Assembly: GCA_964416175.1 (NCBI GenBank)
Contig: CAYQDF010000006.1
Location: forward strand, 526 to 64,525
DNA length: 64,000 bases
Reading direction: 5' to 3'
DNA from: an uncultured Anaerolineaceae bacterium
Lineage (GTDB): Bacteria > Chloroflexota > Anaerolineae > Anaerolineales > UBA4823
A program made the translations under genes and the position numbers. Of the stretch, positions 8,820-47,695 are shown piece after piece. The notes under the pieces were generated by a model. That model had not been told where the DNA came from, did not search any database, and worked only from the letters and a program-made list of their open reading frames with translations. How positions within the stretch are numbered: position 1 is the first letter of the stretch; the number at the start of each line of letters is the position of its first letter.

Positions 8820-8862
8820 GTGGAGTTATGCGATCCAGCCCCTGCGCATAACTCCACTTTTT
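8820..8862 (+). terminator. Intrinsic terminator
   Basis: 13-bp stem GTGGAGTTATGCG/CGCATAACTCCAC followed by TTTTT. The TTG start offered at 8861 in the ORF track lies inside this U-run. Confidence 0.8.
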
Positions 8863-8875
8863 GTATTGTTATAAT

Positions 8876-9781
8876 ATGAGCCTTGTGAACGAAAAGTACG
8901 TATTTTACCCCCCGCACCGTTTTGGATTGGTCTTCAACGCGCTCATGATTGTCCTCCTGGTCGCTGCCGGGACCTGGAGCCTCTGGCAGGCGAGCAATGC
9001 CGCGATTGGCCCCTTATTCCTGCTTTATCTCCTGCCGGGCTGCCTGGCGCTGGTCGGCGTGCCGATCCTGGGATACAGGGCTTACGCCCTTTGGCGGGCT
9101 GCTTATATGGTCGAGCAGAGTGGCATCCGCCTGCGGTGGGGGTTGCGTGAGGAAGATATTCCGATGGACGCGATCCAATGGGTGCGCTCCTGGCAGGAGA
9201 TGGGAACCGAGATTCCGCTGCCAATCTGGCACTGGCCTGGGGCGCTCCTCGGGACTCGGCGCCTGCCGGATGGGACCTTGCTGGAATATCTGGCTTCCGG
9301 TCCGCATGGACTGGTAGCGATCGGGCTGCAGGAAAGGATTTTTGCAATCTCTCCTGCTGATCCAGAGGTTTTTCTGCAGACCTGTAAACGCCTGGCGGAG
9401 TTCGCCTCGCTGGCTTCGATCCCGGCGCGGTCAGCGTATCCTTCTTTTCTTGTCTCGCGTATTTGGGCGGAGCGGCTGGCGCGCCTCCAGCTTATAGGTG
9501 GGTTGGCCCTGGCTGTACTCCTTTTAGCCCTGGTAAGCCTGGTGATCCCTTCCCGTCAGACCGTATCCCTGGGATTCGCTCCGGCCGATAGAGTCCCGGC
9601 CGTGCAGCTGCTCCTGCTGCCTGTGATCAATGGATTCTTTTATCTTTCCCAGCTGCTTTTAGGGATGTATTTCTTTCGCCGTGAGGTGGAAAGGGTCCTT
9701 GCGTACCTGGCGTGGGGCAGCAGCGTGCTGTCAGGGATTATTTTCCTGGCAGCGCTGTTCTTTATCCTCAGAGCGGGATAA
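8876..9781 (+). CDS. Membrane protein with bacterial PH-like (YdbS/YdbT-type) domain
   Basis: Start moved to ATG 8876, downstream of the terminator. Two N-terminal TM helices, a soluble segment (YMVEQSGIRLRWGLREEDIPMDAIQWV), then C-terminal TM helices. Confidence 0.55.
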   Translation: MSLVNEKYVFYPPHRFGLVFNALMIVLLVAAGTWSLWQASNAAIGPLFLLYLLPGCLALVGVPILGYRAYALWRAAYMVEQSGIRLRWGLREEDIPMDAIQWVRSWQEMGTEIPLPIWHWPGALLGTRRLPDGTLLEYLASGPHGLVAIGLQERIFAISPADPEVFLQTCKRLAEFASLASIPARSAYPSFLVSRIWAERLARLQLIGGLALAVLLLALVSLVIPSRQTVSLGFAPADRVPAVQLLLLPVINGFFYLSQLLLGMYFFRREVERVLAYLAWGSSVLSGIIFLAALFFILRAG

Positions 9782-9789
9782 CCTCCAGA

Positions 9790-9851
9790 TTATGCGCAGA
9801 GTTTCCACATGAGGCAGCGAGTTATCCACAGAAATCAGCCGGTTATCCACA
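9790..9851 (+). promoter_or_regulatory. Array of four same-orientation DnaA boxes
   Basis: TTATCCACA perfect at 9822-9830 and 9843-9851. TTATGCGCA (9790-9798) and GTTTCCACA (9801-9809) each have one mismatch to TTWTNCACA. Spacings are 11, 21 and 21 bp. Confidence 0.5.
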
Positions 9852-9870
9852 GAATCCTCCCATCCGGGGT

Positions 9871-10671
9871 ATGCAGATCCTGATAGGTGGGCTCCTCGGC
9901 GGGATCGTCGCCTACCTGGCTTACCGGGCGAAAGCCTTGAACCGCAGTGGGGCAGTCGCCGCTGCCCTGATTGGGGGATTGGTATTTGGCCTGGGAGGTC
10001 TATCGTGGGCAATTTTATTGCTACTGTTCTTCATCACTTCGAGCCTGCTTTCCCGTGCGTTCGACAGGCGTAAATCGAGTTTGAGCGAGAAATACGCCAA
10101 GGGTTCACGCCGCGATTACGCGCAGGTGCTGGCGAACGGTGGACTCGGCGCGTTCCTGGCGATCTTCCAGGCGGTCTTTCCCGAACAGAACTGGCCCTGG
10201 ATGGCATATATCGGAGCAATGGCAGCGGTCACGGCGGACACCTGGGCGACGGAAGTCGGCGTGCTCAGCCCATCTTTGCCGGTCCTGATTACCAACGGGA
10301 AAACAGTTGAGATGGGGGCTTCCGGAGGCGTGACCCTGGCCGGCTATCTGGCTTCGCTGACCGGCGCTCTGGCGATCGGCCTGGGTGCTTCATTGAGTTT
10401 ACCGCTGAAGGGAGTGTGGGAGGTCTGGCTGGTCGCCGTGGTGGGAGGGCTTATCGGGGCAACCACCGACTCGCTTCTGGGCGCCACTGTGCAGGGGATC
10501 TATCATTGCCCGCGGTGTGAGAAGGAGACGGAAAGCCACCCTGTGCACCGCTGTGGGACGCCAACCACCCGGCTGCGCGGCTGGCGCTGGTTGAACAACG
10601 ACCTGGTGAACTTTTTTTCATCGGTGAGCGGCGCAGGAGTTGCTTTGCTCGCCTGGATTCTATCCGGTTAG
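9871..10671 (+). CDS. DUF92 (TMEM19-like) integral membrane protein
   Basis: Start moved to ATG 9871 (MQILIGGLLGG...). The upstream part of the track ORF covers the DnaA boxes and looks non-coding. Multi-TM, with a C-terminal CPRCEKE..HRC motif. Confidence 0.75.
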   Translation: MQILIGGLLGGIVAYLAYRAKALNRSGAVAAALIGGLVFGLGGLSWAILLLLFFITSSLLSRAFDRRKSSLSEKYAKGSRRDYAQVLANGGLGAFLAIFQAVFPEQNWPWMAYIGAMAAVTADTWATEVGVLSPSLPVLITNGKTVEMGASGGVTLAGYLASLTGALAIGLGASLSLPLKGVWEVWLVAVVGGLIGATTDSLLGATVQGIYHCPRCEKETESHPVHRCGTPTTRLRGWRWLNNDLVNFFSSVSGAGVALLAWILSG

Positions 10672-14905: not shown

Positions 14906-15595
14906 GTGCCTGAACAGACGCCCATCACCCTTAACCATTTTACTTTTTTCAAGTTCACCGGCCATTATTACGAACAGCCCCAGGAGGTGCGCAGGCACTT
15001 CAGGCGCGATTTTTTCACGCATGTAAAGCAGACTGCACAACGCACATTCATTTACCAGGTCTTTCCGTTAGGGACGGGGGAGGACTTCATGGTCTGGAGC
15101 GCCCTTCCGATCGAGCAGCCCGGGCTGCCAGGAGATTTCTTCACAGCTTTCGCCAGAGCCACCAGTCCTTTTCGCCCCCTGGCGGAGCCTGTCCAGGCCT
15201 TATGGGGATTCACCCGGCCCTCTCAATATACCCGGACCCGCTCAGCCCAGGAACTGGATCCCTTCAACCCGGTCCGGTGCCGTTATCTGGTCCTGTATCC
15301 ATTCGCCAAGGAAAAGGAATGGTATCTGCTGAGCCAGGAGACCCGCCAGGGCATGATGAACGAGCACATCAAAATCGGCAAAGGTTTCCCAGAAATCCAA
15401 CAGCTCCTGCTGTATTCTTTTGGCCTCCAGGACCAGGAGTTCGTCGTAGTTTACGAAATGGAAGACCTTCCTCAATTCTCGAATCTGGTGTACGAGCTGC
15501 GCCGGACGGAAGCCCGGCGATACACAGAACGGGATACTCCGCTTCACGCCGCTGTTTACCACCCCGAAGACGAGGCTCTCGCATTGTTTGAGTGA
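14906..15595 (+). CDS. hemQ: Coproheme decarboxylase (chlorite dismutase-like HemQ/ChdC)
   Basis: 229 aa, GTG start after GGAGA. YLVLYPFAKEKEWYLLSQETRQGMMNEHIKIG is typical of HemQ. First gene of the heme operon. Confidence 0.85.
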   Translation: MPEQTPITLNHFTFFKFTGHYYEQPQEVRRHFRRDFFTHVKQTAQRTFIYQVFPLGTGEDFMVWSALPIEQPGLPGDFFTAFARATSPFRPLAEPVQALWGFTRPSQYTRTRSAQELDPFNPVRCRYLVLYPFAKEKEWYLLSQETRQGMMNEHIKIGKGFPEIQQLLLYSFGLQDQEFVVVYEMEDLPQFSNLVYELRRTEARRYTERDTPLHAAVYHPEDEALALFE

Positions 15596-15607
15596 GGAAG
15601 AAACCGG

Positions 15608-16591
15608 ATGCAAGTTCCTGAGATCGTTGGGATCCTCTTCATGGCTTATGGCAGCCCCGACTCGCTGGACCAGATGGAACCATATCTGATCGACGTTCGG
15701 GAGGGCCGCCCGCCTACCCCGGAACTGGTGGCGGAAATTCGCCGACGCTACGCCAGCATCGGTGGGCGCTCGCCATTGCTGGATTGGACGAAGGCCCAGG
15801 CGAACGCGGTCGCTGAACTCTTGAACCGGGAACACGCCTCGCAGAGGCTCCACTTTAGGGCTTACGTCGGGATGCGCCACTGGGAACCGCGCATCGGGCG
15901 GGCTGTCGAAAGTATGGCGGCGGATGGGATCCGCCGGGCGATCGCGCTCGTCATGGCCCCCCATAGCTCCCGGATGAGCGTTGGTAAATATTTCGAGCAG
16001 CTCGAGAAAAGCCTCGCGGAGAAGGACGCGGATATCTTATTCGCGCGCATCGAGAACTGGCACGATCATCCCGGTTTGATCGCTGCTCTCGCTGAGAGAT
16101 ATTTCGAAGCCAGGGGGCGTTTCGCCACGGCGAGCGATCCGTACGTGATCTTCACAGCTCACAGTTTGCCAGCCAGGATCCTCGAGGTGGGAGATCCGTA
16201 CGATGCCCAACTGCGGGCGACATCTCGCATCCTGGCGGACCTCCTCGAGCTACGGGATGGGCGCTGGCAGTTCTGTTACCAAAGCGCAGGAGCCAGCGCC
16301 GTTCCCTGGTTAGGCCCGCAGATAGAGGCAGTGATTGAAGAGCTTGCCCAAAAGGGCGAAAAAGATCTCCTGGTAGTGCCGATCGGATTCGTTTGCGATC
16401 ATGTCGAGGTGCTGTACGACATCGATATCGGCTGCCAGCAGATCGCACGCCGCCATGGGGCACACCTGGAAAGGAGCCCCTCCCTGAACACCTCGCCGAC
16501 TTTTATCCGGGCGCTGGCCGACCTGGTCCTGGAAGCTTTGCCGGGCCTGGAACTCGCTCAGAAGAACCCGCGCCACCCACGGGGGTATTAA
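15608..16591 (+). CDS. hemH: Ferrochelatase (likely coproporphyrin ferrochelatase CpfC)
   Basis: 327 aa. MAYGSPDSLD N-terminus, HSLP motif (FTAHSLPARILE), VPIGFVCDHVEVLYDID. Confidence 0.9.
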   Translation: MQVPEIVGILFMAYGSPDSLDQMEPYLIDVREGRPPTPELVAEIRRRYASIGGRSPLLDWTKAQANAVAELLNREHASQRLHFRAYVGMRHWEPRIGRAVESMAADGIRRAIALVMAPHSSRMSVGKYFEQLEKSLAEKDADILFARIENWHDHPGLIAALAERYFEARGRFATASDPYVIFTAHSLPARILEVGDPYDAQLRATSRILADLLELRDGRWQFCYQSAGASAVPWLGPQIEAVIEELAQKGEKDLLVVPIGFVCDHVEVLYDIDIGCQQIARRHGAHLERSPSLNTSPTFIRALADLVLEALPGLELAQKNPRHPRGY

Positions 16592-16609
16592 GGCTAACAG
16601 AGCACTGGT

Positions 16610-17881
16610 ATGACGATCCTTTGTATTGGTGTCAGCCATCAAACTGGGAGCGTGGTCCTGCGCGAGCGGTTGGCTTTTGATGAGCAAGCCCGGCAGGCTG
16701 CCCTTGCGGAGTTCCGGCAAGGTGGCAGGGACTGCGCGCCTGGTGTCCATGAGCTCGCGATCTTATCGACCTGCAACCGGGTTGAGATCTACGGCGTGGC
16801 TTCCCACGAAGATTTCACCGTGCTTGAATCGTTTCTGGAAAAATCCCGGGGGATCTCCCGGCCCACCTTTTCCCTGTCCCTGTACCGGTACTCCGGCGAG
16901 GAGGCAGTCCACCACATTTTCTCAGTGGCGGCCGGGCTGGATTCCTTGATCCTCGGAGAACCACAAATCCTGGGACAGGTCTCTCGAGCGCTGGAGGTGG
17001 CGCAGAGCCAGGGTGCTGCCGGTAAGGTCCTGACGCGCCTCTTCCAGTCTGCTGTCCATGCCGGGAAGCGTGCCCGAACAGAGACGAGCATCTCGCAGAA
17101 TCCCGCCACAATTTCGTCGATGGCTGTGCGCCTGATCACAGAGATCGTTGGAGATGTCGCCAGCAGCCATTTTGCAGTCCTGGGTGCTGGTGAAATGGCT
17201 GAGCTGGCAGTAGAAGCGCTGATTAAACGCGGCGCGACCCAGATATATGTGGTGAATCGGACCTTGCAGCGGGCACAGGGGCTGGCGAAAAAATGGGGCG
17301 GTCGTCCAGTCGCCTTCGCTCACTTGCCGGAAGTGTTAGAGATCGCGGACGCCGTGATTGCTTCCACTGGTGCGATGCACCCTGTGATCTGTAAAGGAAT
17401 GGTGGAAGAGGCGATGGAAACCCGGCCGAAGCGTCCTCTGGTGATCATGGATATTGCAGTGCCGCGCAACGTTGACCCCCAGGTCGCAGAGATCCCCGGA
17501 GTCACCCTTTACGACATGGATGCGCTTTGGGACTGCCTGGAGGATTCGCTGGCCCTTCGCGCCCGGGAGGTCCCCCACGTCATGCAGGTGATAGAGGAGG
17601 AGCGCGCTGAATTCATGAAATTTCTTACCGAAATGGAAGTCAACCCGCTGATCGCTGAGCTGCGCAGACAGGCTGACCAGATCAGACTCCGGGAACTCGA
17701 GAAGACCTTCCGGCGGATGCCGGACCTGACGCCGGCAGACAAGGAACGCGTGGCCGCGTTGACGAAGAGCATTGTCAAGAAGATCCTTCACGCGCCGACG
17801 GCCTGCCTGCGCTCTCAATTAAATGGCCCCGATGCCGCAGATTATGCGCACCTTACCCGCCAGCTGTTTGACCTGGATTGA
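16610..17881 (+). CDS. hemA: Glutamyl-tRNA reductase
   Basis: 423 aa. LSTCNRVEIY catalytic Cys motif and NADPH Rossmann segment VLGAGEMAE. Confidence 0.95.
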   Translation: MTILCIGVSHQTGSVVLRERLAFDEQARQAALAEFRQGGRDCAPGVHELAILSTCNRVEIYGVASHEDFTVLESFLEKSRGISRPTFSLSLYRYSGEEAVHHIFSVAAGLDSLILGEPQILGQVSRALEVAQSQGAAGKVLTRLFQSAVHAGKRARTETSISQNPATISSMAVRLITEIVGDVASSHFAVLGAGEMAELAVEALIKRGATQIYVVNRTLQRAQGLAKKWGGRPVAFAHLPEVLEIADAVIASTGAMHPVICKGMVEEAMETRPKRPLVIMDIAVPRNVDPQVAEIPGVTLYDMDALWDCLEDSLALRAREVPHVMQVIEEERAEFMKFLTEMEVNPLIAELRRQADQIRLRELEKTFRRMPDLTPADKERVAALTKSIVKKILHAPTACLRSQLNGPDAADYAHLTRQLFDLD

Positions 17882-17886
17882 GCCGA

Positions 17887-18801
17887 ATGCCAAAGCTGAT
17901 TTTCGCCACTCGCCCCTCGAAATTAGCCCGTACTCAGACGGAATTTGTGATCGATCGTCTCAAGCCAGTCTGGCCCGACCTGGACCTCCAGGTGCGCGTG
18001 ATCCACACCCAGGGAGACCGCGACCGTGCTCGCCCGCTCCCCGAGATCGGGGGAAAAGGCATATTCACCCAGGAGTTGGAGGCAGCTCTGATCGCTGGTG
18101 AGGTCGACGCGGCAGTTCATTCCTTGAAGGACCTGATGGTCGAGGACAGCCCTGGGCTGTGTGTTGGGGTGATCCCGGCAAGAGAGGATGCGCGCGACGT
18201 GCTGATCTCGCCGTCTGGCGGCAGCCTGGATGACCTTCCATCGGGCGCGGTTGTCGGGACTTCCAGCCTGCGCCGCCAGGCGCAGCTCCTGGCTTATCGC
18301 CCGGACCTGAAGATGTCGCCGGTGCGCGGCAACGTGGAGACCAGGGTCAGGCAGGTCCAGGAGGGAAGGTACGACGCCATCGTCCTGGCAGCTGCGGGAG
18401 TGATCCGTCTCGGCCTGGCTGAACTGATCACCCAGTATCTGCCATTCGAGGTCATGCTGCCTGCACCCGGGCAGGCTGCTCTGGCGGTCCAGTGCCGCGT
18501 CGATGATCTTGAAACACCGGTTTTCTTATCCGTGCTGGAGGATCCAGCAGTTCGCGCAGCGACCACTGCCGAGCGGGCCTTCCTGGCGGGCTTGGGCGGC
18601 GGATGCGCCCTGCCCATCGCCGCCTATGGGTATGCGGATCAGGATGGGATCATCACCCTGGAGGGGCTGGTCGCCTCCCTGGATGGGAGCCGCACGATCC
18701 GACTTTCAGCCTCTGGGAAGGAGCCGGCTGCCCTGGGAGCCGAGCTGGCAGCTGCTGCGCTGGCTGAGGGAGCAAAGTCTCTGCTGGCGGTGCAGGTATG
18801 A
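17887..18801 (+). CDS. hemC: Hydroxymethylbilane synthase (porphobilinogen deaminase)
   Basis: ATG 17887 chosen (MPKLIFATRPSKLARTQTE). The TTG at 17878 in the track is also possible. GNVETR and SLKD motifs present. Confidence 0.9.
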   Translation: MPKLIFATRPSKLARTQTEFVIDRLKPVWPDLDLQVRVIHTQGDRDRARPLPEIGGKGIFTQELEAALIAGEVDAAVHSLKDLMVEDSPGLCVGVIPAREDARDVLISPSGGSLDDLPSGAVVGTSSLRRQAQLLAYRPDLKMSPVRGNVETRVRQVQEGRYDAIVLAAAGVIRLGLAELITQYLPFEVMLPAPGQAALAVQCRVDDLETPVFLSVLEDPAVRAATTAERAFLAGLGGGCALPIAAYGYADQDGIITLEGLVASLDGSRTIRLSASGKEPAALGAELAAAALAEGAKSLLAVQV

Positions 18802-19568
18802 ACCTGGAGGGCAAGCGCATCCTCATCACTCGCCCCGCCTCGCAGGCGGGTGGATTCATACGGGCACTGGCGTCAGCCAAAGCGCTGCCAGTTTGTTTCC
18901 CGACTATCCAGATTGCCCCGCCGGCAGACCTGACCGCCCTGGACCAGGCGCTGTCGCGCCTGGAGTGCTATGCCTGGCTGGTGCTGACCAGCGCCAACGC
19001 AGTCCGGGCCGTTTGGGAGCGGATGGAAGTATTAGAGATTCACCGCCTTCCCCGACAGTTGCGAGTCGCTGCGATCGGTCCGGTGACTGCCGCTGCCCTG
19101 GAAGGCCACGGCTGCCAGCCAGACCTGGTACCCTGCGAATACACCGCCGAGGCGATACTCCCGGGGCTGGGGGATATCAGGGGTCTCTGGGTGCTGCTGC
19201 CGCGCGCGGAGCTGGCGCGCGAGGCGCTTCCGGATGGCATCAACGCAGCCGGGGGCGTGGCTCACGTGGTTGTGGCTTACCGGACCCTGCCTGCTGTGCC
19301 TGATCCGCAGAGCATCCAGGCTTTGGCCGAGGGCATCGATATCATCACCTTCACCAGCTCGTCGACCGTGCGCAATTTCGTCGACCTGGTGCGCAGGGCC
19401 GGATTTGACCCCCTCCACCTGCCTGGCGAACCGCTGATCGCCTGTATTGGGCCGATCACAGCCCGGACTGCCCTGGAGGCAGGCTTTCGACCCGGCGTTG
19501 TGGCAGAGCAATACACCGTAGAAGGATTGGTTGGTTCTCTATTGAGGTATAAAAATGAAACTGGTTGA
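18798..19568 (+). CDS. hemD: Uroporphyrinogen-III synthase
   Basis: 256 aa. ATGA overlap with hemC. HEM4-like two-lobe pattern (ILITRP..., [18 protein letters not shown]). Confidence 0.85.
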
Positions 19569-20643
19569 TACGCTGGACAGCAAACTGCCGGTGGGGCGGC
19601 GCACCGCGGATGCCGCACCTGACCCCGGCTGGAGACCGCCTCTTCCGGTCCATCGCCCACGCCGCCTGCGGCTGACTCCGGAAATCCGGACCCTCGTGCG
19701 GGAGACGGAAGTCTCCCCGCGGGATTTGATCTATCCCCTCTTCGTGCGTCCCGGGAAAAACGTCCGGCAGGAGATCCGTTCAATGCCAGGGATCTTCCAG
19801 TGGTCTGTAGACCGCCTGCCGTACGAAGCCGAATCCATCGCCAGGTTGGGCCTGCCAGGGGTGATCCTGTTCGGGATCCCCCTTCAGAAGGACCCGATCG
19901 GCCTGGAGAATTTTGATCCAGAGGGTATCGTCCACCAGGCCATTCGAGCGATCAAGGCTGCCGTCCCGAAGCTGCTCGTGATCACAGACATCTGCCTGTG
20001 CGAATACACCGATCACGGTCACTGCGGCCTGTTGAACGCCAGCGGCGATTTGCTGCATCTTCACCTACCGGAGGGATACGTTCTCAACGATGAGACTCTG
20101 GAAGTGTTGGGGCGGACGGCCCGTTCGCATGCCGAGGCGGGCGCCGACATCGTCGCCCCGAGCGGCATGATCGACGGCATGGTGGCCGCGATCCGGTCTG
20201 CCCTCGATCAAGCCCGATTTGAGCACATACCGATCCTTTCTTATGCTGTTAAATATGCTTCGGCTTTCTACGGGCCTTTTCGTGAGGCAGCCGAGTCCCC
20301 CCCGAAGTTCGGCGACCGCCGGTCACACCAGATGGATCCCGCGAACGCGCGCGAAGCGCTGCGAGAGGTGGCGCTGGACGTGGCGGAGGGTGCAGACATC
20401 TTGATGGTCAAGCCAGCCCTGCCTTATCTGGATGTGCTCCACATGCTCAGGCAGGCATACCCGCAGCTGCCTCTGGCCGCGTACAGCGTCAGCGGCGAGT
20501 ACTCGATGATCAAAGCCGCTGCCGCGAACGGCTGGCTCGACGAGCGGACAGCGGTCCTGGAGGCGTTGACCGCCATCAAGAGGGCCGGCGCGGACTTCAT
20601 TCTGACCTACCACGCAAAAGAGGCAGCGGGATGGCTGGCGTGA
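19555..20643 (+). CDS. hemB: Porphobilinogen synthase (ALA dehydratase)
   Basis: 362 aa. RPRRLR..IR.LVRET, cysteine-rich Zn site [14 protein letters not shown], active-site Lys regions (MVKPA). Confidence 0.92.
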
Positions 20644-21836
20644 GTCCTGTTCCCCTCACCGGGCAGGCAGCTGCAGAAAGAAGCTACCACGACCAGCGCA
20701 TGCTCCAGGCCGATTTCACCCGCGCTCCTTTCACCATTGCCTGGGAAGTAACGCGGGCGTGCGCCTACGCCTGCAAGCACTGCCGGGCTGATGCCCAGCA
20801 TGTCCCCCACCCAGACGAGCTGACCACTGCTGAGGCCTTCGGACTGATCGACAACCTGGCTCGCTTCGGCAGCCCGATCCTGGTCTTCACCGGCGGCGAT
20901 CCCATGATGCGCCGGGACCTGTTCGACCTGATCGCGTACGCAGCCGGGCGGGGTCTGCGCTGCTCGCTGACGCCCACTGCCACCGCGCTGCCCACTCTGG
21001 CGCGTCTGGAGAAAGCCCGGGAAGCAGGCATCCGGCGGATTGCCCTCAGCCTGGATGCGCCATCGCCCGGCGCACATGATGAATTCCGCCAGGTCGAAGG
21101 TTCCTGGGAGCGCACGATGAAGATCTTGCACCGCGCGCAGGATGCCGGGCTGAGCGTGCAGGTCAACACCACCGTCACCCGCTTCAACGTGGATTCGCTG
21201 CCCGAGATGGTGCCATTTGTCAAAGCCGTGCAGGCAGTACAGTGGTCGGTGTTTTTCATGGTGCCCACCGGGCGCGCACAGGCGGCCTGGATGATCTCCC
21301 CTGAGGAGCACGAGCGCACGTTCCACTGGTTGTACGACCTGTCTCGGGAAGCGCCGTTCGATATTAAAGCAACTGCCGCGCCGATGTACCGCCGGGTGGC
21401 TATCCAGCGTCGGCGTACAGAGGCGGACGACGGTGAGGAAATCACCTTCCAGGGAGCCGGGTTTCAATTCGCCGACGGGCTTGACCGCCCAACGAAAGGG
21501 GTCAATGACGGCAATGGTTTCCTCTTCATCTCTCACCGCGGTGAGATCATGCCCTCGGGATTTCTTCCAGTCCCGGCTGGCAACGTGCGCACCGACGACG
21601 TGGTCCAGGTCTACCAGCAACACCCCCTGTTCCTGGATTTGCGGAATCCGGCAAAATTGAAAGGCCGCTGTGGCGTTTGCGAATACCGCGAGGTGTGCGG
21701 CGGGCAGCGCGGGCGCGCCTACGGTGTGACCGGGGATTACCTGGAGACCGACCCCGCCTGCCTCTACCAGCCCGAAGCTTATCGGAGGTCCGGACAGCCC
21801 ACCTCAGGTCTGCCGGGAGGAACTGCTTGGAAATGA
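20631..21836 (+). CDS. Radical SAM/SPASM enzyme, AhbC/AhbD/NirJ-like, embedded in the heme operon
   Basis: 401 aa. CAYACKHC (CxxxCxxC) cluster motif. [10 protein letters not shown]-terminal SPASM-type [18 protein letters not shown]. Overlaps the hemB stop, and its stop overlaps the hemE ATG (ATGA). Confidence 0.8.
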
Positions 21837-22921
21837 AGGCATCGCCGGCATTGTCTGTTCAGACAGGTTCGGTGGACGCGCCTCCCGAACCGCAGGGTCG
21901 ATTCCTGCGCGCCTGCCGACGCCTGCCTGTGGACGCCACGCCAGTCTGGTTTATGCGCCAGGCCGGGCGCTACCTGCCGGAATACCGCGCCATCCGTGCG
22001 CGCTTCAGCCTGCTGGAGATCACCCGGCGACCGGAGGTCACGGCGGAGGTCACCCTGCAACCCGTTGATATCCTTGGAGTGGATGCAGCGATCTTGTTCG
22101 CCGATATCCTGCTCCCGCTCATCCCGCTTGGGCTGGACCTGGAATTCGTTTCCGGCGAAGGTCCTGTGATTCGAAACCCTGTCCGCAGCGCCGAAGGTGT
22201 TGCCCGCCTGCGGGAGGTGGACGTCCAAAGCGATCTTGGGCACGTCTTTGAGGCGATCCGCCTGGTCAGGCGGGAGCTGGAGGGGCGCGGCATCCCGCTG
22301 ATCGGCTTTGCGGGCGCGCCTTTCACGGTGGCTTCCTACATCGTAGAGGGCGGCCCTTCGAAGGATTTCCTGCATACCAAGCGGCTGATGTACACCTCCC
22401 CGGAGACCTGGCACCATTTGATGGAGAAGATCTCCAGTACCCTGGCGGCCTACCTGCTCTCCCAGGCGCAGGCGGGAGCGCAGGCAGTGCAGGTTTTCGA
22501 TTCCTGGGTGGGTGCTCTCAGCCCCGGGGATTATGTCCGCTATGCGCAGCCTTATTCCAGGCGAGTCCTTGCCGCAGTCCAGGCTGCCAATGTGCCGGTG
22601 ATCCACTTCGGTACGGGGACGGCAACCCTGCTGCAATCGATGAAGGAGGCAGGCGGCACCGTGATCGGCCTCGACTGGCGCATCCCGCTCGACGCAGGCT
22701 GGCAGACCGTTGGTTATGACCTTGCCGTGCAGGGAAACCTCGACCCGGTCCTGCTGTTCTCTCCCATGACCCTGCTTGGGGAGCGGGTTAAAGAAGTGCT
22801 GTCTCTGGCGGAAGGCCGTCCAGGGCATATCTTTAACCTGGGGCATGGCATCCTTCCAGAAACGCCGGTCGAAAATGTCCGGGCAGTTGTGGATCTGGTG
22901 CACGAATGGAGCGCCCGGTGA
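21833..22921 (+). CDS. hemE: Uroporphyrinogen decarboxylase
   Basis: Start moved to ATG 21833 (MKASPAL...), in frame with track ORF 21677. PVWFMRQAGRYLPEY signature. Confidence 0.9.
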   Translation: MKASPALSVQTGSVDAPPEPQGRFLRACRRLPVDATPVWFMRQAGRYLPEYRAIRARFSLLEITRRPEVTAEVTLQPVDILGVDAAILFADILLPLIPLGLDLEFVSGEGPVIRNPVRSAEGVARLREVDVQSDLGHVFEAIRLVRRELEGRGIPLIGFAGAPFTVASYIVEGGPSKDFLHTKRLMYTSPETWHHLMEKISSTLAAYLLSQAQAGAQAVQVFDSWVGALSPGDYVRYAQPYSRRVLAAVQAANVPVIHFGTGTATLLQSMKEAGGTVIGLDWRIPLDAGWQTVGYDLAVQGNLDPVLLFSPMTLLGERVKEVLSLAEGRPGHIFNLGHGILPETPVENVRAVVDLVHEWSAR

Positions 22922-24336
22922 AGCGGCTGGTCGTCGTGGGCGGAGGGATCGCCGGGCTGGCGGCAGCGTATTACGCGAGTCGGCTGTTCACCGATCGCCG
23001 CCAGGTGACCCTTGTCGAGCGAGAAGATCGTTGGGGAGGCAAAATTCGCACCGATCGCGTGGACGGGTTTGTCCTGGAAGCCGGGCCTGATACTTTTATC
23101 GCAGCCAAACCTTGGGCGGTGGACCTTTGCCGCGAACTTGGCATCGGGGAACGGCTGCGTGGCACCAACCCCCACAAGAAAAATACCTATATCTTGCGCA
23201 GAGGCCAGCTGCATCCCCTGCCTGGCGGGCTGTCGATGATGATCCCGACCCGGTTCGGAGACCTGGTCCGCAGTGGTTTAATTTCCTGGCCGGGCAAACT
23301 GCGCATGGGGCTGGATGTTCTGCTGCCCCCTGCCAATTGGAGCAGCTCTGAAGACGATGAGAGTATTGGGGAATTCGTGACCCGCCGCCTGGGGAGAGAG
23401 GCCTACGAAGCGCTGATCGAGCCGCTGATGAGCGGGATCTATGCCGGAGACGGCGACAGCCTGAGCCTCCTTTCCACGTTCCCTTATTTACGGGAGCTGG
23501 AGGCCAGACATGGAAGCCTGGTCCGGGGAGCACTGGCTGCGCGTGCCCGGCAGCCGAAGAATGGAAAAGGCCCAGCCAGCGGATCACGCAGCCTTTTCCT
23601 GACGCCACTTTCAGGGCTTGGGGAGATCGTGGAGACTCTCGTGGAGGTGCTGGAAGAGAGGGAGACGGGCATGATCATCGGGAATGGAGCCAGGCATCTT
23701 GAGAGGGTAGAGGGCGGTTACCGCCTGGAGCTGGAGGATGGATCCTGTCTGGAGGCGGAGGCTGTGATCCTGGCGACGCCAGCTTACATTTCCGCGAACC
23801 TCCTGGCAGGGGTTGCCCCTGGTCTGGCGGGGGAGCTGCGCGCCATCGAGTATGCGACGACAGCCACGGTCTCTCTGGGATACGAGGAAAGCGACCTGCC
23901 CCGGCCGCTGGACGGCTACGGCTACGCCATTCCTCGCCGGGAAGGGAGGAAGGCGCTGGCCTGTACCTGGACTTCGACCAAGTTCCCGCACCGCGCCCCA
24001 GCAGGAAAAGCTTTGCTGAGGGTGTTTATCGGCCGCGCCGGACAGGAGGATATCGCCTGGGATGAGGCGAGCCTGGAAGAGATCGCCAGGGAGGAACTCC
24101 GTGAGACGCTCGGGATCACAGCCAGGCCGCTCCTCACCCGGGTAACTGTCTGGGAGCGGGCAATGCCGCAGTATACGCTCGGACACGCTGCTCGCCTGGA
24201 CCGGATCAATGCCGGGCTGGCCGGACTCCCTGGCCTGGCTCTGGCCGGGAACGGATACAGGGGGATCGGTATCCCGGACTGCATCCGTTCTGGCGCGCGG
24301 GCGGTCGAGCAGCTGACAGGAGTGACCATCGGATGA
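22906..24336 (+). CDS. hemY: Coproporphyrinogen/protoporphyrinogen oxidase, HemY (CgoX) type
   Basis: 476 aa. FAD dinucleotide motif [15 protein letters not shown]. The C-terminal [13 protein letters not shown] is typical of HemY. Confidence 0.85.
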
Positions 24337-25616
24337 GGATCGAGAAATCCATCCAGCTCTTTGCGCAGGCTCGGCAGCTGCTTCCCGGCGGAGTCGATTC
24401 ACCGGTGCGAGCTTTTCGCGCTGTCGGGGGGCAACCCGTTTTCATCGAACGGGGCGCGGGGCCGTACCTGTATGACGTGGACGGCAACCGCTACATTGAT
24501 TATGTCCTTTCGTGGGGCCCTCTGATCCTGGGGCACGCGCATCCTGCTGTGGTCTCCGCCCTTAAAGAAGCCGTCGGGCGCGGGACGAGCTTCGGCGCGC
24601 CGAATCCGCTGGAGATCGAACTGGCGCGCTGGGTGCAATCCTTTATGCCCGGCATCGAGATGCTCCGCTTCGTTAACTCCGGCACCGAGGCCACGATGTC
24701 CGCCCTCCGGCTTGCGAGAGCGTTCACCCGGCGCGATAAGATCGTCAAGTTTGAAGGCTGCTACCACGGGCACGCGGATATGCTCCTGGTTCGGGCTGGT
24801 TCGGGCGTCGCCACGTTGGGGTTGCCCGACTCGCCCGGAGTGCCGGCGGCGACTGTCCAGGATACCCTTGTAGCGCGCTACAACGACCTCGAATCGGTCG
24901 AGCAGCTCTTTCGCCAGCATCCAGAGGAGATCGCGGCGGTGATCGTGGAACCAGTGGCTGGCAATATGGGAGTCGTGCCGCCCCTGGATGGCTTCCTGAA
25001 CGGTTTGCGTTCGCTCACCGCAGCACACGGCGCCCTGCTCGTCTTCGACGAAGTGATGACCGGATTCAGGGTCCATCCAGGCGGCGCTCAGGGGTTGTAC
25101 GGTATCCAGCCTGACCTGACCACTCTCGGAAAAGTGATCGGGGGCGGACTGCCGGTCGGCGCATACGGCGGGAGGCGGGAGATCATGGAGATGGTGGCGC
25201 CCGCGGGCCCTGTCTATCAGGCCGGTACGCTGTCCGGCAATCCCCTGGCGATGGCGGCGGGGATCGCGACGCTGGTAGAATTAGCCCGACCAGAAACCTG
25301 GATTCAGCTGGAGCGAACCAGCGAGCAGCTGGCAAATGGTTGCGCTCGAGCTGCCCGGGAGGTGGGCGTACCCGTGCGGCAGACGCGCGTCGGAACGATG
25401 TTCTCGCTGTTCTTCACGGAAGCGCCTGTTTATGACTGGCAGAGCGTCAAAGCCAGCGACATTGACCGGTTCGCACGATTCTTCCGGGCGATGCTGGCGC
25501 GCGGTATCTACCTGGCCCCCTCCCAGTTCGAAGCAGGGTTCGTCTCGACTGCCCACCGTCCGGAAGATATCCAGGATACGGTCGCAGCTGCGCTCGATGC
25601 GTTTAAGACACTCTAA
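24333..25616 (+). CDS. hemL: Glutamate-1-semialdehyde 2,1-aminomutase
   Basis: 427 aa. ATGA overlap with hemY. PLP lysine region [17 protein letters not shown]. Confidence 0.95.
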
Positions 25617-35305: not shown

Positions 35306-35311
35306 GATTTG

Positions 35312-35421
35312 TGTGGAGGCAGTGATCCACAGGCTTGGACTGGTCGCACGACCTCCAAGGGAGGGGAGCCTGCGGGGAGCCAATTGCGAAACCGGCCACA
35401 GGTCGGTTTCGTTTGCTTTTT
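35312..35421 (+). ncRNA. Candidate small RNA or cis-regulatory leader of about 110 nt, unclassified
   Basis: Bounded by the promoter above and an intrinsic terminator. Internal helix UGGAGG/CCUCCA (35314-35319 / 35352-35357). G-rich repeat GGGGAGCC x2. No ORF. Confidence 0.4.
35388..35421 (+). terminator. Intrinsic terminator
   Basis: GAAACCGGCC-ACA-GGTCGGTTTC hairpin (one G-U pair) followed by GTTTGCTTTTT. Confidence 0.75.
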
Positions 35422-35685: not shown

Positions 35686-37992
35686 ATGAAACGGCTCGTT
35701 TCTTTGTTCATATTGCTAGCCCTTGTAGCCGGACTGTTCGCGATGCCAGCCCTATCCGGTCCGGTTTCTGCGGGCAATATCTCTTCCAAGGATAGAACCG
35801 TAGACCTGATCGTCAAGACCGATGGGGCCAGCAGTTCGGTAATCAGCAAAGTCAATGCGCTGGGAGGTACAGTAAAATACGCCTATAAGAACGTCCCGGT
35901 CCTGGCGGTCAGAATTCCAGTGGATAACTACCTGGCGCTGCTGAACACCCCGGGGGTCTTGACAATCGTGAAGGACCGGCTGATCTCACTGAGCGCAGAG
36001 GTCGGGTTGAAGGAAAAGCCAGCCCCCGAATCGTATCTGGTGCAGGACGCGGCGGGCATCGCCGTGAAAGCCCTGGATCCGAAATCTCTGGACCTCGCCG
36101 CACTCCCGGAAGGTTACGCGAACTTTATTTACACTGGCGCTATCGACGTCTGGGAAGCGACAGACTTTGGCGCGGGCACCGTGGTGGCGGTAGTTGACAC
36201 GGGCACAGTCCCGAATGTCTGCCTTGCCCACGCAGTGATCGGCGCGCCGGGATTCCCGGATGGCTACAATGCCACCGGCGACGGCGTTCCCGCGACCGAT
36301 CCGCTGAATCACTGGCACGGCACACACGTGGGAGGTGTGATCGCTTCGGCCTGTGCGCTGGATTTCACGAGCGATCCCGGCGATCCGCTCTACCAGGCGA
36401 TCTCTGCCTACCTGCCGTGGTCGGTCGATTTCGTCCCGATCTTAGGCCAGGCGCCGCTCGCCCAGCTTTACCCGGTGAAGGTCTTTGACGTGACTGGCGG
36501 TTCGACGCCCACCTCGGTCATCCTCGATGGGCTCGACCACCTGCTGACTCTCAAGCGGGATGGTCTTTTGGATGTTGATGTGGTGAACATGAGCCTCGGC
36601 GGTTCATCGCTCTACGATGGCAAGGATATCTTCGACACATTCTTGCTCGAATTCCGCAAGGAGCACATCCTGGTCGTGACTTCCGCCAGCAACGATGGGC
36701 CGATCCCGAACAGCATCGGCTCCCCGGCCACCTCCTTCCGGACGCTCGCCGTTGGGGCTTTGGATTATGCACCGTCCTCCCGCGTTCTCTATGAATACCT
36801 GGGCCTCATCTCTGGCCTTGGATCAGGCCAGGGGATGGTGATGCGGCCGACGGATGAAGTGCGGGTGACGAATTTCTCCAGCCGAGGTCCCATGAGTGAC
36901 GGACGCATGGGCCCGGACATCTCCGCGCTGGGTTTGTGGAACTTCCACGCCGGCCCGCAAAATGAACTGCGCTGGGCGGGTGGGACCTCGTTCTCCTCCC
37001 CCACCGTGGCAGGCGGCGCTGCGCTGATCAACTCCTACTACGAGAACAAGCACGGCTCGGATACGCCGATCCATCGCTGGTATAAATCCCTCCTCAAATC
37101 GGCGGATCCCAGCGTGGTCGGCAGCAGCTGGCAGGGAGCGAACGACGTCGGATTCGGCGCCCTGGACATGGTCGCCGCGCTGAAGACCTTCCGCAATCCG
37201 CCAGTCCTCATGGATTACCCGGTCTACACCGGCGAACTCGCGCCGAGCATCCTCGGCGATCCTGTCAAGTTCCAGACGGACGTTTATGAGAGCTCCACGA
37301 TCACTCTGAACCCGAGCGAGACGCACACCGCGGTCTTCTCCATCGCCCCGTTCACCAGCAAGGTGACCATCGAGTTCTTCGATATCGTCGCGCCGGACAA
37401 CTCGGCGTACGCGTACTGGCCGAACGCCCTCGAGGTCCACGTCCAGAGCGCCAAGCGCACGGCTGTAGCCCACCCGGTTGGCCTCTACTGGTATCCCTTC
37501 GCTTACGGGGATGCCTTCTCCATTGAGATCGAAGACGGTCCGTGGACTGTGGCGGGCACTCCCTGGACATACCAGCCCATGGAACCTGGCTTGATGAAAG
37601 TCTCCCTGGTGGGCGACTTCTCGAACGAGTCCCCGGTCAGCTTCAAGATGCGCGTGACGCGGGAGAACGATGGCCTCAAGCGTGGCAGGCTGCTGGCCAG
37701 CTCCGACATCGGAATGGGCGATGCGTTCGTCATCCCGGTGGATGTCCCTGCCGGGCTCAGCTCGGTCACTTTCGACACGGTCTTCACCCGGAACTGGACG
37801 AAGTTCCCCACCAGCGACATCGATATGCTCATCTTCGATCCGGATCTGAACCTGGTCTCGATCGACGGCGCAACCCTGAACGCGCCGGAGCGGGCTGTCA
37901 TCGAGAATCCCGCAGCTGGAACCTGGTACATCTACATCGAAGGATTCGAGATGTACCGGAAGGATCACTTCAAACTCTGGATGAAGAAATAG
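35686..37992 (+). CDS. Secreted S8 (subtilisin-like) serine peptidase with C-terminal pre-peptidase-like domain
   Basis: 768 aa. Signal peptide. Catalytic triad motifs VAVVDTGT, HGTHVGG, GGTSFSSPTVAG. Confidence 0.9.
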   Translation: MKRLVSLFILLALVAGLFAMPALSGPVSAGNISSKDRTVDLIVKTDGASSSVISKVNALGGTVKYAYKNVPVLAVRIPVDNYLALLNTPGVLTIVKDRLISLSAEVGLKEKPAPESYLVQDAAGIAVKALDPKSLDLAALPEGYANFIYTGAIDVWEATDFGAGTVVAVVDTGTVPNVCLAHAVIGAPGFPDGYNATGDGVPATDPLNHWHGTHVGGVIASACALDFTSDPGDPLYQAISAYLPWSVDFVPILGQAPLAQLYPVKVFDVTGGSTPTSVILDGLDHLLTLKRDGLLDVDVVNMSLGGSSLYDGKDIFDTFLLEFRKEHILVVTSASNDGPIPNSIGSPATSFRTLAVGALDYAPSSRVLYEYLGLISGLGSGQGMVMRPTDEVRVTNFSSRGPMSDGRMGPDISALGLWNFHAGPQNELRWAGGTSFSSPTVAGGAALINSYYENKHGSDTPIHRWYKSLLKSADPSVVGSSWQGANDVGFGALDMVAALKTFRNPPVLMDYPVYTGELAPSILGDPVKFQTDVYESSTITLNPSETHTAVFSIAPFTSKVTIEFFDIVAPDNSAYAYWPNALEVHVQSAKRTAVAHPVGLYWYPFAYGDAFSIEIEDGPWTVAGTPWTYQPMEPGLMKVSLVGDFSNESPVSFKMRVTRENDGLKRGRLLASSDIGMGDAFVIPVDVPAGLSSVTFDTVFTRNWTKFPTSDIDMLIFDPDLNLVSIDGATLNAPERAVIENPAAGTWYIYIEGFEMYRKDHFKLWMKK

Positions 37993-43808: not shown

Positions 43809-44639
43809 ATGCTGGAAAATATCGACCTCTCCCTGAAGCTCGGGAAGAAAGAATACAGGCGGTTAAAACCGGAGCTGCAGAACCACCTCTACGCCGTGCA
43901 GAAAGCGTCCTGGGATGCCGGCATCCCGGTGATCATCCTCTTCGAGGGCTGGGATGCAGCCGGGAAGGGAACGGCGATCCAGCACCTGACCACCAGGCTT
44001 GATCCGCGCGGTTTCAAACTTTATCCCATCCGAGCAGCGCGCACGTACGAGAAAAAGCGCCCCTGGCTGTGGCGATTCTGGCTCAAGATCCCCGGCCGGG
44101 GCGAGTGGGCGATCTTCGACCGCTCGTGGTACGGCCGGACGCTGGTGGAACGCGTGGAAAATCTGATCCCGGAATCCGAATGGCGGACGGCTTACCGGGA
44201 CATCGTCGACTTCGAGGGCACCCTGGCCGATGACGGTTATCTGATCATCAAGCTGTTCTTGCATATCAGCCGCCAGGAGCAGAAGCGGCGGTTTGAGAAA
44301 TTGTCCCGGGATCCCCTGAACGCCTGGCACGTCGAGCCCGAAGACTGGGAGCACCATCGCCATTACAGGGAATGGCTGTTGGCTTACGAAGAGACTTTCG
44401 AACGCACCGAGGCAGAGTGGGCACCCTGGACGATCGTGGAAGCCACCGATCAACGCTATTCCCTGATCAAGGTCTACCGGACGATCATCGGCGCGCTGGA
44501 GGAGAGGCTTTCTGCGGCAGGCGCTTCCCCCGACCCGGCTTTGTGGCTGAAAAGTGCGGCGGGCGAGGGCGAGGAAAGCCGCGTCGAAGAAGTTATCCAA
44601 GAGGAGCCCGTCGGGTTGCCGGCCTCCCAGTTAAAATAA
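43809..44639 (+). CDS. ppk2: Polyphosphate kinase 2 family protein (single domain)
   Basis: 276 aa. Walker A-like FEGWDAAGKG, FDRSWYGR lid motif. Confidence 0.85.
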   Translation: MLENIDLSLKLGKKEYRRLKPELQNHLYAVQKASWDAGIPVIILFEGWDAAGKGTAIQHLTTRLDPRGFKLYPIRAARTYEKKRPWLWRFWLKIPGRGEWAIFDRSWYGRTLVERVENLIPESEWRTAYRDIVDFEGTLADDGYLIIKLFLHISRQEQKRRFEKLSRDPLNAWHVEPEDWEHHRHYREWLLAYEETFERTEAEWAPWTIVEATDQRYSLIKVYRTIIGALEERLSAAGASPDPALWLKSAAGEGEESRVEEVIQEEPVGLPASQLK

Positions 44640-44685
44640 CAACCAGCACACGCTTCCGCTTATTGCAGGCAAGAAGATTGCGCAC

Positions 44686-45492
44686 ATGCTCAAGACAGTC
44701 GATCTGACATCCGCATTAGAAAAAGAAGAATATCTCCATTCTTTGGTGAAGTACCAGGTTGCTCTGCACAGCCTGGGATATCAGGTCTATGTCCAGCAGC
44801 GCCCGGTGGTGATGGTCTTCGAGGGGTGGGACGCAGCCGGGAAAGGGGGAGCCATCAAACGCGTCACCGAGAAGCTTGACCCGCGCGGCTACGTGGTCTA
44901 TTCGATCGCCACCCCCCAGGGTGAGGACGCAGTCCGCCATTACCTCTATCGATTCTGGAGGAGGCTGCCCGAATCCGGGCAGATCGCCATCTTCGACCGC
45001 AGCTGGTACGGCCGCGTCCTGGTCGAGCGCATCGAGGGGTTCTGCACCGAAGAGGCCTGGAAGCGCGCCTACCGGGAGATCAACCAGTTCGAGCGGCAGC
45101 TGGTCGATTTCGGCACCATCCTGTTCAAGTTCTGGATGCAGATCAGCTCCGATGAACAGCTGCGGCGCTTCGAAGCCCGCGCCGGGGATGTCCTGCGCAG
45201 CTGGAAACTCACCGAAGAGGACTGGCGCAATCGGGAGAAGTGGGACCAGTACGAAGAAGCGGTCAACGACATGCTGCTCAAGACCAGTACGGTGACGGCT
45301 CCATGGACGATCGTCGCGGCCAACAACAAGTGGTACGCGCGCGTGAAAGTGCTCAAAACGCTTGTCGACAGGCTGAGCCAGGAGCTACAGTACGACCCCT
45401 TTGCCGATAGCGTTGACCGGGCAGGCAAGAAAGGCAGCTCTGCTGGTTCGAAGAAGAGGAAAAAGAAGGAAAAGTCCACCGCTTTGGGTTAG
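44686..45492 (+). CDS. ppk2: Polyphosphate kinase 2 family protein (second paralog) with Lys-rich tail
   Basis: 268 aa. FEGWDAAGKG, FDRSWYGR. C-terminal KKGSSAGSKKRKKKEK. Confidence 0.85.
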   Translation: MLKTVDLTSALEKEEYLHSLVKYQVALHSLGYQVYVQQRPVVMVFEGWDAAGKGGAIKRVTEKLDPRGYVVYSIATPQGEDAVRHYLYRFWRRLPESGQIAIFDRSWYGRVLVERIEGFCTEEAWKRAYREINQFERQLVDFGTILFKFWMQISSDEQLRRFEARAGDVLRSWKLTEEDWRNREKWDQYEEAVNDMLLKTSTVTAPWTIVAANNKWYARVKVLKTLVDRLSQELQYDPFADSVDRAGKKGSSAGSKKRKKKEKSTALG

Positions 45493-45510
45493 GCGGCGGA
45501 GGGAAATAGG

Positions 45511-47652: not shown

Positions 47653-47695
47653 GGCAGGGTCTGGATACAGATGGAGAAGCGATTCAGGAAAAGGT

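Follow-up and report, generated by a model that had tools for sequence, protein, structure and literature searches.

An array of predicted DnaA boxes with a conserved 21-bp period between the bPH_5 and DUF92 genes of Anaerolineales

Outside the replication origin, DnaA-binding sites have, as far as we know, been characterised thoroughly in E. coli, Bacillus and a few other bacteria only, and we know of no replication-control data for the phylum Chloroflexota. The DnaA-box clusters of Bacillus, which contain more boxes than the array described here, are dense intergenic groups of consensus or one-mismatch boxes outside oriC and away from the unwinding site. They bind DnaA stably, repress neighbouring genes, with ywlC and yydA being regulated negatively, and jointly restrain initiation (PMC2533591, PMC3245932). 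In E. coli, the non-coding chromosomal locus datA has essential boxes that share one orientation and stand at optimised intervals (PMC5742627); an IHF site is needed between its boxes 2 and 3, and this locus spans about 180-260 bp. The E. coli loci DARS1 and DARS2 have a core with three DnaA boxes, in which box I is opposite to boxes II and III, with head-to-head DnaA contacts (PMC5742627). DnaA has also been described as a roadblock inside transcribed regions, at the asnC terminator and in guaB of E. coli, where the box or boxes lie downstream of the promoter, as summarised in PMC11317965 (refs 27-29 therein). The DnaA-oligomerisation arrays of oriC, finally, consist of co-oriented boxes in helical register.

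The array compared here with these systems was found in 64,000 nt of DNA of an uncultured Anaerolineaceae bacterium; this whole stretch is referred to as the window. The features of the region are the following.

8820 to 8862, + strand: intrinsic-terminator-like hairpin with T-run after the SIMPL gene (-23.2 kcal/mol, z-score -5.1)
8867 to 8875, + strand: TGtTATAAT, read from the sequence as a candidate promoter of the extended -10 type for the bPH_5-DUF92 unit
8876 to 9781, + strand: bPH_5 (bacterial PH domain) membrane protein (Pfam PF10882, E 3e-14; called as a 301 aa gene in L001-L006)
9782 to 9870, + strand: intercistronic spacer of 89 bp, nearly filled by the array
9790 to 9798, + strand: doubtful weak box TTATGCGCA, off the 21-bp register and with no counterpart in relatives
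9801 to 9809, + strand: degenerate third predicted DnaA box, GTTTCCACA, standing at -42, a position conserved in relatives
9822 to 9830, + strand: middle predicted DnaA box, a perfect TTATCCACA placed 21 bp upstream of the last one
9843 to 9851, + strand: last (promoter-distal) predicted DnaA box, perfect TTATCCACA, with the DUF92 ATG 19 nt downstream; anchor for the 27-locus comparison
9871 to 10671, + strand: DUF92 integral membrane protein (Pfam PF01940, E 1e-67)

The first-pass annotation of this DNA had described four DnaA boxes on one face of the helix, in the gap between the stop codon of the PH-domain protein and the DUF92 ATG at 9871. The location in this gap was confirmed, as were the coordinates and the + strand of the two perfect boxes and the start-to-start spacings of 11, 21 and 21 bp in a single orientation. 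The whole array measures 62 bp with three to four co-oriented boxes. The two perfect boxes have a 13-bp core, GTTATCCACAGAA, in common, and the spacers that follow differ. In the 64-kb window, TTATCCACA occurs only in these two copies, versus 0.09 expected, and two copies were reached in none of 100 shuffles of the window. A chance origin of the two perfect boxes, which had been called unlikely, is excluded. The two upstream sites had been presented as one-mismatch boxes. This holds against the relaxed consensus TTWTNCACA, to which TTATGCGCA and GTTTCCACA each have one mismatch, but not against TTATCCACA, to which each has two. The box at 9801 is probably real, as a degenerate third box, because it stands exactly at the -42 position conserved in the relatives. 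What speaks for the box at 9790, and this alone, is the 2-bp gap that makes it a pair with the 9801 box (a 'double box'). A further match to TTATGCGCA, on the - strand at 8843-8851, is part of the stem of the SIMPL terminator. The array is better read as three conserved positions and one doubtful box than as the four boxes first counted.

Neither dnaA nor dnaN was found by Pfam scans of every large ORF in the window, and a six-frame search of the window gave no DnaA signature motifs, in agreement with the initial description of the array as lying away from these genes. Several other features of the window came to light. At 35306-35404 (+), Rfam recognised a c-di-GMP-II-GAG riboswitch aptamer (RF03169; 44.6 bits, which exceeds the gathering score). 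It lies just behind a gene for a SpoIIE-type phosphatase and precedes a subtilase S8 gene (35686-37992) by about 280 nt. The haem biosynthesis genes at 14906-25616 (+) form a long cluster with a common orientation. They encode a chlorite-dismutase-like protein, ferrochelatase, GluTR, PBG deaminase, HEM4 and ALAD, followed by a radical SAM protein, UroD, an oxidase of the amine-oxidase type and an aminotransferase of class III; this gene set looks like the coproporphyrin-dependent route. A polyphosphate cluster at 43809-49633 (+) contains two PPK2 genes, PPK1 and a gene for a CHAD-domain protein with an N-terminal HTH. At 62968-63052 (-), ARAGORN called an 85-nt tRNA-Gly(GCC) within the CDS for gamma-glutamyltranspeptidase and antisense to it. 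This CDS has a Pfam match over residues 32-537 of 542 and Rfam gave no tRNA at gathering score, and the call is probably a false positive.

The conservation of the array was assessed in 80 DUF92 loci from GTDB species representatives, which together with the window amount to 1.19 Mb. A DUF92 protein identical to that of the window is found on metagenome contigs only, the nearest GTDB genomes being Anaerolineales or Chloroflexota MAGs. Two to four TTATCCACA boxes are present directly 5′ of DUF92 in 26 of the 80 loci (26 GTDB species), with DUF92 products that are 47-66% identical to that of the window. In a 27th locus, L028, the array is decayed. A metagenome scan detected the array at the same locus in at least four further contigs. 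The position of the array is always the gap after the bPH_5 gene; the gene pair itself, bPH_5 and then DUF92, is kept in about 45 of the 80 loci.

Across the 27 loci, every one of the 76 boxes with at most one mismatch is on the coding strand, and the spacing between neighbours is 21 bp in 41 of 49 cases and 22 bp in three more. When these loci were anchored on the last box only, the position -21 showed 1.2-2.0 bits per column. At the position -42, where the relatives have a perfect or one-mismatch box, 1.1-1.3 bits were found in columns -41 to -37. Values near 2 bits are reached only within the 9-mer, and no spacer column comes to 0.6 bits. Hardly any two of the 12-bp spacers are alike, 47 of 50 having a sequence of their own, and the flank preference is weak (R-N ahead of the box, G-W-W-W-T behind it). 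Within the species, six contigs show a single SNP in the gap, at 9839, which falls in a spacer. The first-pass annotation had made its reading depend on the 9-mer being rare elsewhere; in the window and the 80 loci, the arrays hold 52 perfect boxes, and the rest of the 1.19 Mb holds 5 versus 5.5 expected. Since the spacers diverge while the 9-mers, their orientation and their period remain constant, the latter are under selection and the sequence between them is not. We conclude that the array is an old and selectively maintained set of three predicted DnaA boxes, possibly four. About 18 loci have the bPH_5-DUF92 pair with a spacer of about 10-40 bp, typical of co-transcribed genes, and with no boxes. 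These relatives are scattered through the DUF92 tree, and several subclades have lost the array while retaining both genes. Given this repeated loss, its predicted function is dispensable.

Two of the compared loci have peculiarities of their own. The locus L031 (DYIZ01000121.1), labelled Candidatus Aquidulcis sp. of the class Limnocylindria, has the full SIMPL-bPH_5-array-DUF92-HAD-MoaA synteny with the Anaerolineales loci and a MoaA product with 81% identity; either the label is doubtful or the element would extend beyond Anaerolineae. In L017, three perfect boxes at 2011-2061 are separated by identical spacers (GTTGAATACGG), which suggests a recent duplication of the 21-bp unit. An IS-like insertion of about 8 kb (L017:2100-9990), the first ORF of which was read as transposase-like, lies in this locus between the intact array and DUF92, and a lone perfect box is found about 170 bp before DUF92.

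To our knowledge, DnaA is the sole protein that recognises TTATCCACA as an asymmetric 9-mer, and the information in the aligned loci is confined to this 9-mer, with background level at its edges. We infer that DnaA is the binder of the array. This assignment rests on the near-universal DnaA-box consensus (PMC6669920), taken to hold for the DnaA of Anaerolineales as well. A metagenome scan for three perfect boxes at 21-bp spacing gave at least 120 matches (L087-L206). Among the matches listed, about 15 are beside dnaA in box-rich, origin-type regions, and triplets were found between dnaA and dnaN in Competibacteraceae contigs; other listed triplets are isolated and have Prim-Pol/AAA_25 replication genes, a serine recombinase gene or nrdD as neighbours. 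The dnaA-linked matches were also considered as the dnaA and oriC of this clade and rejected, L107 being Patescibacteria-like and L152 belonging to Competibacteraceae. The viral contigs L207-L326 provided an unbiased sample of tandem perfect boxes in one orientation. Measured from start to start, their distances have maxima at 11-12 bp (75 pairs), 20-22 bp (40 pairs) and 31-34 bp (21 pairs), which corresponds to one, two and three helical turns. Judged from these sets, the 21-bp phasing is a general signature of predicted DnaA sites. The triplets in origins and the viral phasing support DnaA as the binder, and they support an explanation of the spacing by cooperative binding on the same face. 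A literature search on 21-bp phased DnaA boxes or on the oriC of Chloroflexi found nothing relevant.

The same data bear on whether the repeats might be operators for another lineage-specific protein, for instance a response regulator acting on direct repeats, the match to the DnaA box being coincidental. Helically phased direct repeats are what OmpR/PhoB-type regulators typically bind, the element occurs in one clade only, and there is the weak preference for G-W-W-W-T after the box, often GAAAT after the middle box. However, the conserved core is exactly the universal 9-mer, and the same motif with the same 21-bp spacing recurs in dnaA-linked origins and in mobile-element replication modules of unrelated taxa. 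We regard such a coincidence as very unlikely.

With three to four co-oriented boxes within 62 bp, the array has the DnaA-box cluster expected of oriC. One could imagine that, in a lineage with oriC unlinked from dnaA, it serves as the chromosomal origin or contributes the DnaA-box half to a bipartite one. In the window, the - strand carries all genes left of 7834 and the + strand carries SIMPL, bPH_5 and DUF92. The cumulative GC skew stays level up to about 8 kb and climbs from there. In the complete genome CP070764.1 (locus L034), the N-terminus of dnaN is encoded at L034:1-189 (-), so that dnaN starts 9.7 kb from the array, and there is no other box cluster within 20 kb. Several observations speak against this reading. 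The absence of an adjacent AT-rich element or DnaA-trio, reported from the first inspection, was confirmed: 40-bp windows across 9500-10200 reach at most 62% AT. The rule for the basal unwinding system asks for at least three NAN trios that follow a box after a spacer of no more than 16 bp (PMC8287927). The run in the window is two, and runs of at least three occur in 9 of the 27 loci versus 21% of random positions, a frequency not raised over random. In several loci, the array begins right at the bPH_5 stop codon and 2-12 nt separate its last box from the DUF92 ATG, and there is therefore no room to unwind. Nor does the GC skew change sign consistently at the array, the position of which relative to a skew inflection had been proposed as a check. 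The skew averages -0.001 left of the array and +0.021 right of it, a difference that is not significant (p = 0.08; 10 kb per side). In many loci the two sides agree in the sign of the skew, in several also in its size, and in the window it is positive on both sides. The genes right of DUF92 (HAD, MoaA, DinB, CorA) are on the - strand in most loci. The repeated loss of the array at a syntenic site, in relatives that have the same gene pair, implies that it is not an only origin. Because an AT-rich element, a DnaA-trio and a consistent switch of skew or strand are missing and the array is lost in relatives, we conclude from these comparative data, in line with the first-pass annotation, that the array is not a replication origin, and we give the contrary reading hardly any weight. 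The array resembles the oligomerisation arrays of oriC in its helical register but differs from them in these features and in being dispensable in relatives.

The surroundings of dnaN in the L034 lineage were inspected as well. The AT-rich 230-bp region upstream of L034 dnaN contains no DnaA boxes, and dnaA is not adjacent. In the close relatives L327 and L328, neither dnaA nor a box cluster was found beside dnaN. The oriC seems to be unlinked from dnaN in the lineage of these three. Short 'DnaN' proteins proved to be frameshift fragments from long-read assemblies. In a Chloroflexota MAG, recF (L073:7757-8968, +), preceded by a peptide deformylase gene, is located directly upstream of bPH_5, the array and DUF92. 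It was considered as a clue to an origin region and rejected: this recF stands alone, with no dnaA or dnaN nearby.

The transcriptional setting of the array was derived from the flanking genes. In the window, SIMPL, bPH_5 and DUF92 on the + strand are followed by genes for a HAD hydrolase and MoaA on the opposite strand. The stability of the hairpin after SIMPL was matched by none of 200 shuffles, and this putative terminator would form the upstream boundary of a bPH_5-DUF92 unit. The candidate promoter TGtTATAAT, which has no -35 match, was missed by the consensus promoter scan. The consensus scan found no promoter-like or terminator-like site in 9782-9870, and no promoter is conserved in the gap of the relatives (27 loci). 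A promoter formed by the boxes themselves was considered and rejected, as a weak TCCACA-N17-CACAAT arrangement is present in only 5 of the 27 loci and absent from the window. An RNA element in the gap was likewise discarded: there is no Rfam match, and the fold is no better than that of shuffles (z-score 0.28). The distance from the last box to the DUF92 start codon is 2-60 nt across the array loci, and the MQI/MQL start of the DUF92 protein is kept in homologues. Because of the SIMPL terminator, the lack of a promoter or terminator in the gap and the short distance to the start codon, the array is placed inside the bPH_5-DUF92 unit. The two genes appear to be transcribed as one unit, with the array in their intercistronic gap, and DUF92 is likely to be the regulated cistron. 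The first-pass annotation had proposed a DnaA-regulated promoter among other functions. Its regulatory sense is kept here, but the promoter part has to be reworded, since the gap contains no promoter and the array would lie within a transcribed region.

This geometry, judged from sequence alone, fits a roadblock, which places a box within a transcribed region upstream of a gene. The asnC and guaB sites of E. coli, as far as they are summarised in PMC11317965 (refs 27-29 therein), have one or two boxes, whereas the present array has three phased, predicted high-affinity boxes that are kept across many species. We propose that the three boxes, which at 21 bp stand two helical turns apart and thus on one DNA face, would be bound by DnaA cooperatively. 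Bound DnaA would block RNA polymerase from reading into DUF92, or would occlude the ribosome-binding region on the DNA. High DnaA occupancy would then lower the output of DUF92, and transcription across the site would strip DnaA off. As the last box is too close to the start codon to have a separate promoter downstream of it, any action on DUF92 is expected to be negative, by occlusion or roadblock.

The best explanation of the data, to which we assign a probability of roughly 0.55, is a selectively maintained DnaA array in the bPH_5-DUF92 operon that blocks DUF92 transcription. Its parts differ in strength. That the array is a functional, non-origin DnaA-binding site is held with high confidence. 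That its main job is the cis-regulation of DUF92 by roadblock or occlusion is put forward tentatively, at slightly less than even odds. Several points weigh against this explanation. The array is intact in L017 even though the insertion separates it from DUF92, which fits a function independent of this gene, and it is lost in subclades that keep the gene pair. We know of no link between DUF92, which we take to be the family of the plant phytyl-phosphate kinase VTE6, and the cell cycle. Finally, E. coli DnaA prefers in vivo box pairs with gaps of 2-3 bp, and many consensus boxes that stand alone stay unoccupied (ChIP-seq; PMC11317965), whereas the boxes of the array are 12 bp apart. Gaps of this length may need longer-range contacts, weak sites in the spacers or another mode of cooperativity. 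Hidden low-affinity boxes in the 12-bp spacers were looked for and rejected, the offsets 10-11 matching on average at 3.4 of 9 positions versus 2.2 in the background, which is too weak. A more specific version of the proposal, in which the array is a previously undescribed intra-operon DnaA sensor that gates read-through into DUF92 by a DnaA complex on high-affinity boxes two helical turns apart, a spacing for which the 2-3 bp gaps of E. coli would not predict cooperativity, is doubtful.

The main rival to DUF92 regulation is a DnaA-buffering or DnaA-inactivating role. The array would then be a control locus for DnaA activity, of the datA or Bacillus type, which restrains re-initiation by holding or inactivating DnaA-ATP, and its position between bPH_5 and DUF92 would be a historical accident. 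The Bacillus DnaA-box clusters are the closest analogue of the array. Like the six clusters of Bacillus (PMC3245932), it is a dense intergenic group of consensus and near-consensus boxes outside oriC and away from an unwinding site. It differs from them in having three to four boxes, in its strict single direction and exact 21-bp spacing, and in standing between two co-oriented cistrons and not in a promoter region. With the essential boxes of datA it shares the single orientation and the fixed intervals, 41 of 49 spacings being 21 bp, as well as a non-coding chromosomal location (PMC5742627), but it spans only about 50-60 bp. The persistence of the array in L017 and the distance of 9.7 kb to the dnaN start in CP070764.1, which hints at an origin-proximal location, would also be in line with such a role.

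A datA-type locus would be expected to carry an IHF site, and the spacer between the middle and the last box resembles one. The E. coli IHF consensus WATCAANNNNTTR is matched at 8 of 9 positions at 9833-9845 in the window, at 9 of 9 in L037 and L039, and mostly at 7 of 9 elsewhere. This spacer often starts with GAAAT(C/G) or GGAATC, and the TTA of the next box completes the IHF-like match. The good match is present in few loci only and the next box supplies part of it, which makes a datA-type IHF site doubtful; IHF is mainly a proteobacterial protein and is not expected in this phylum. Plain titration looks weak, since three to four boxes hold few DnaA molecules. Moreover, no box cluster is found next to dnaN in L034 and its close relatives, and the repeated loss speaks against a central role. 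We consider DnaA control as the main function to be rather unlikely. The DARS-like function proposed at first is contradicted by the orientation of the boxes: the DARS core needs an opposite box I, and there is no - strand box among the 76 boxes of the 27 loci. Returning to the regulation of DUF92 as the preferred reading, a secondary role of the array as a DnaA-buffering site would be compatible with it.

The array is a clear and deeply conserved example of a predicted non-origin DnaA-box site in Chloroflexota. Its regular architecture would make it a clean test case for the cooperation of DnaA across two helical turns, and three boxes with a 21-bp period may serve as a simple marker for DnaA-controlled sites in uncultured genomes. 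It is also a warning for origin-prediction tools, as a cluster of perfect boxes near dnaN need not be oriC. If the 21-bp and 32-bp phasing reflects a general, under-described cooperativity of DnaA, it would apply to origins, to the replication modules of mobile elements and to regulatory sites. If the proposed blocking of DUF92 transcription is true, envelope or isoprenoid-lipid metabolism would be tied to the replication-initiation potential in these bacteria.
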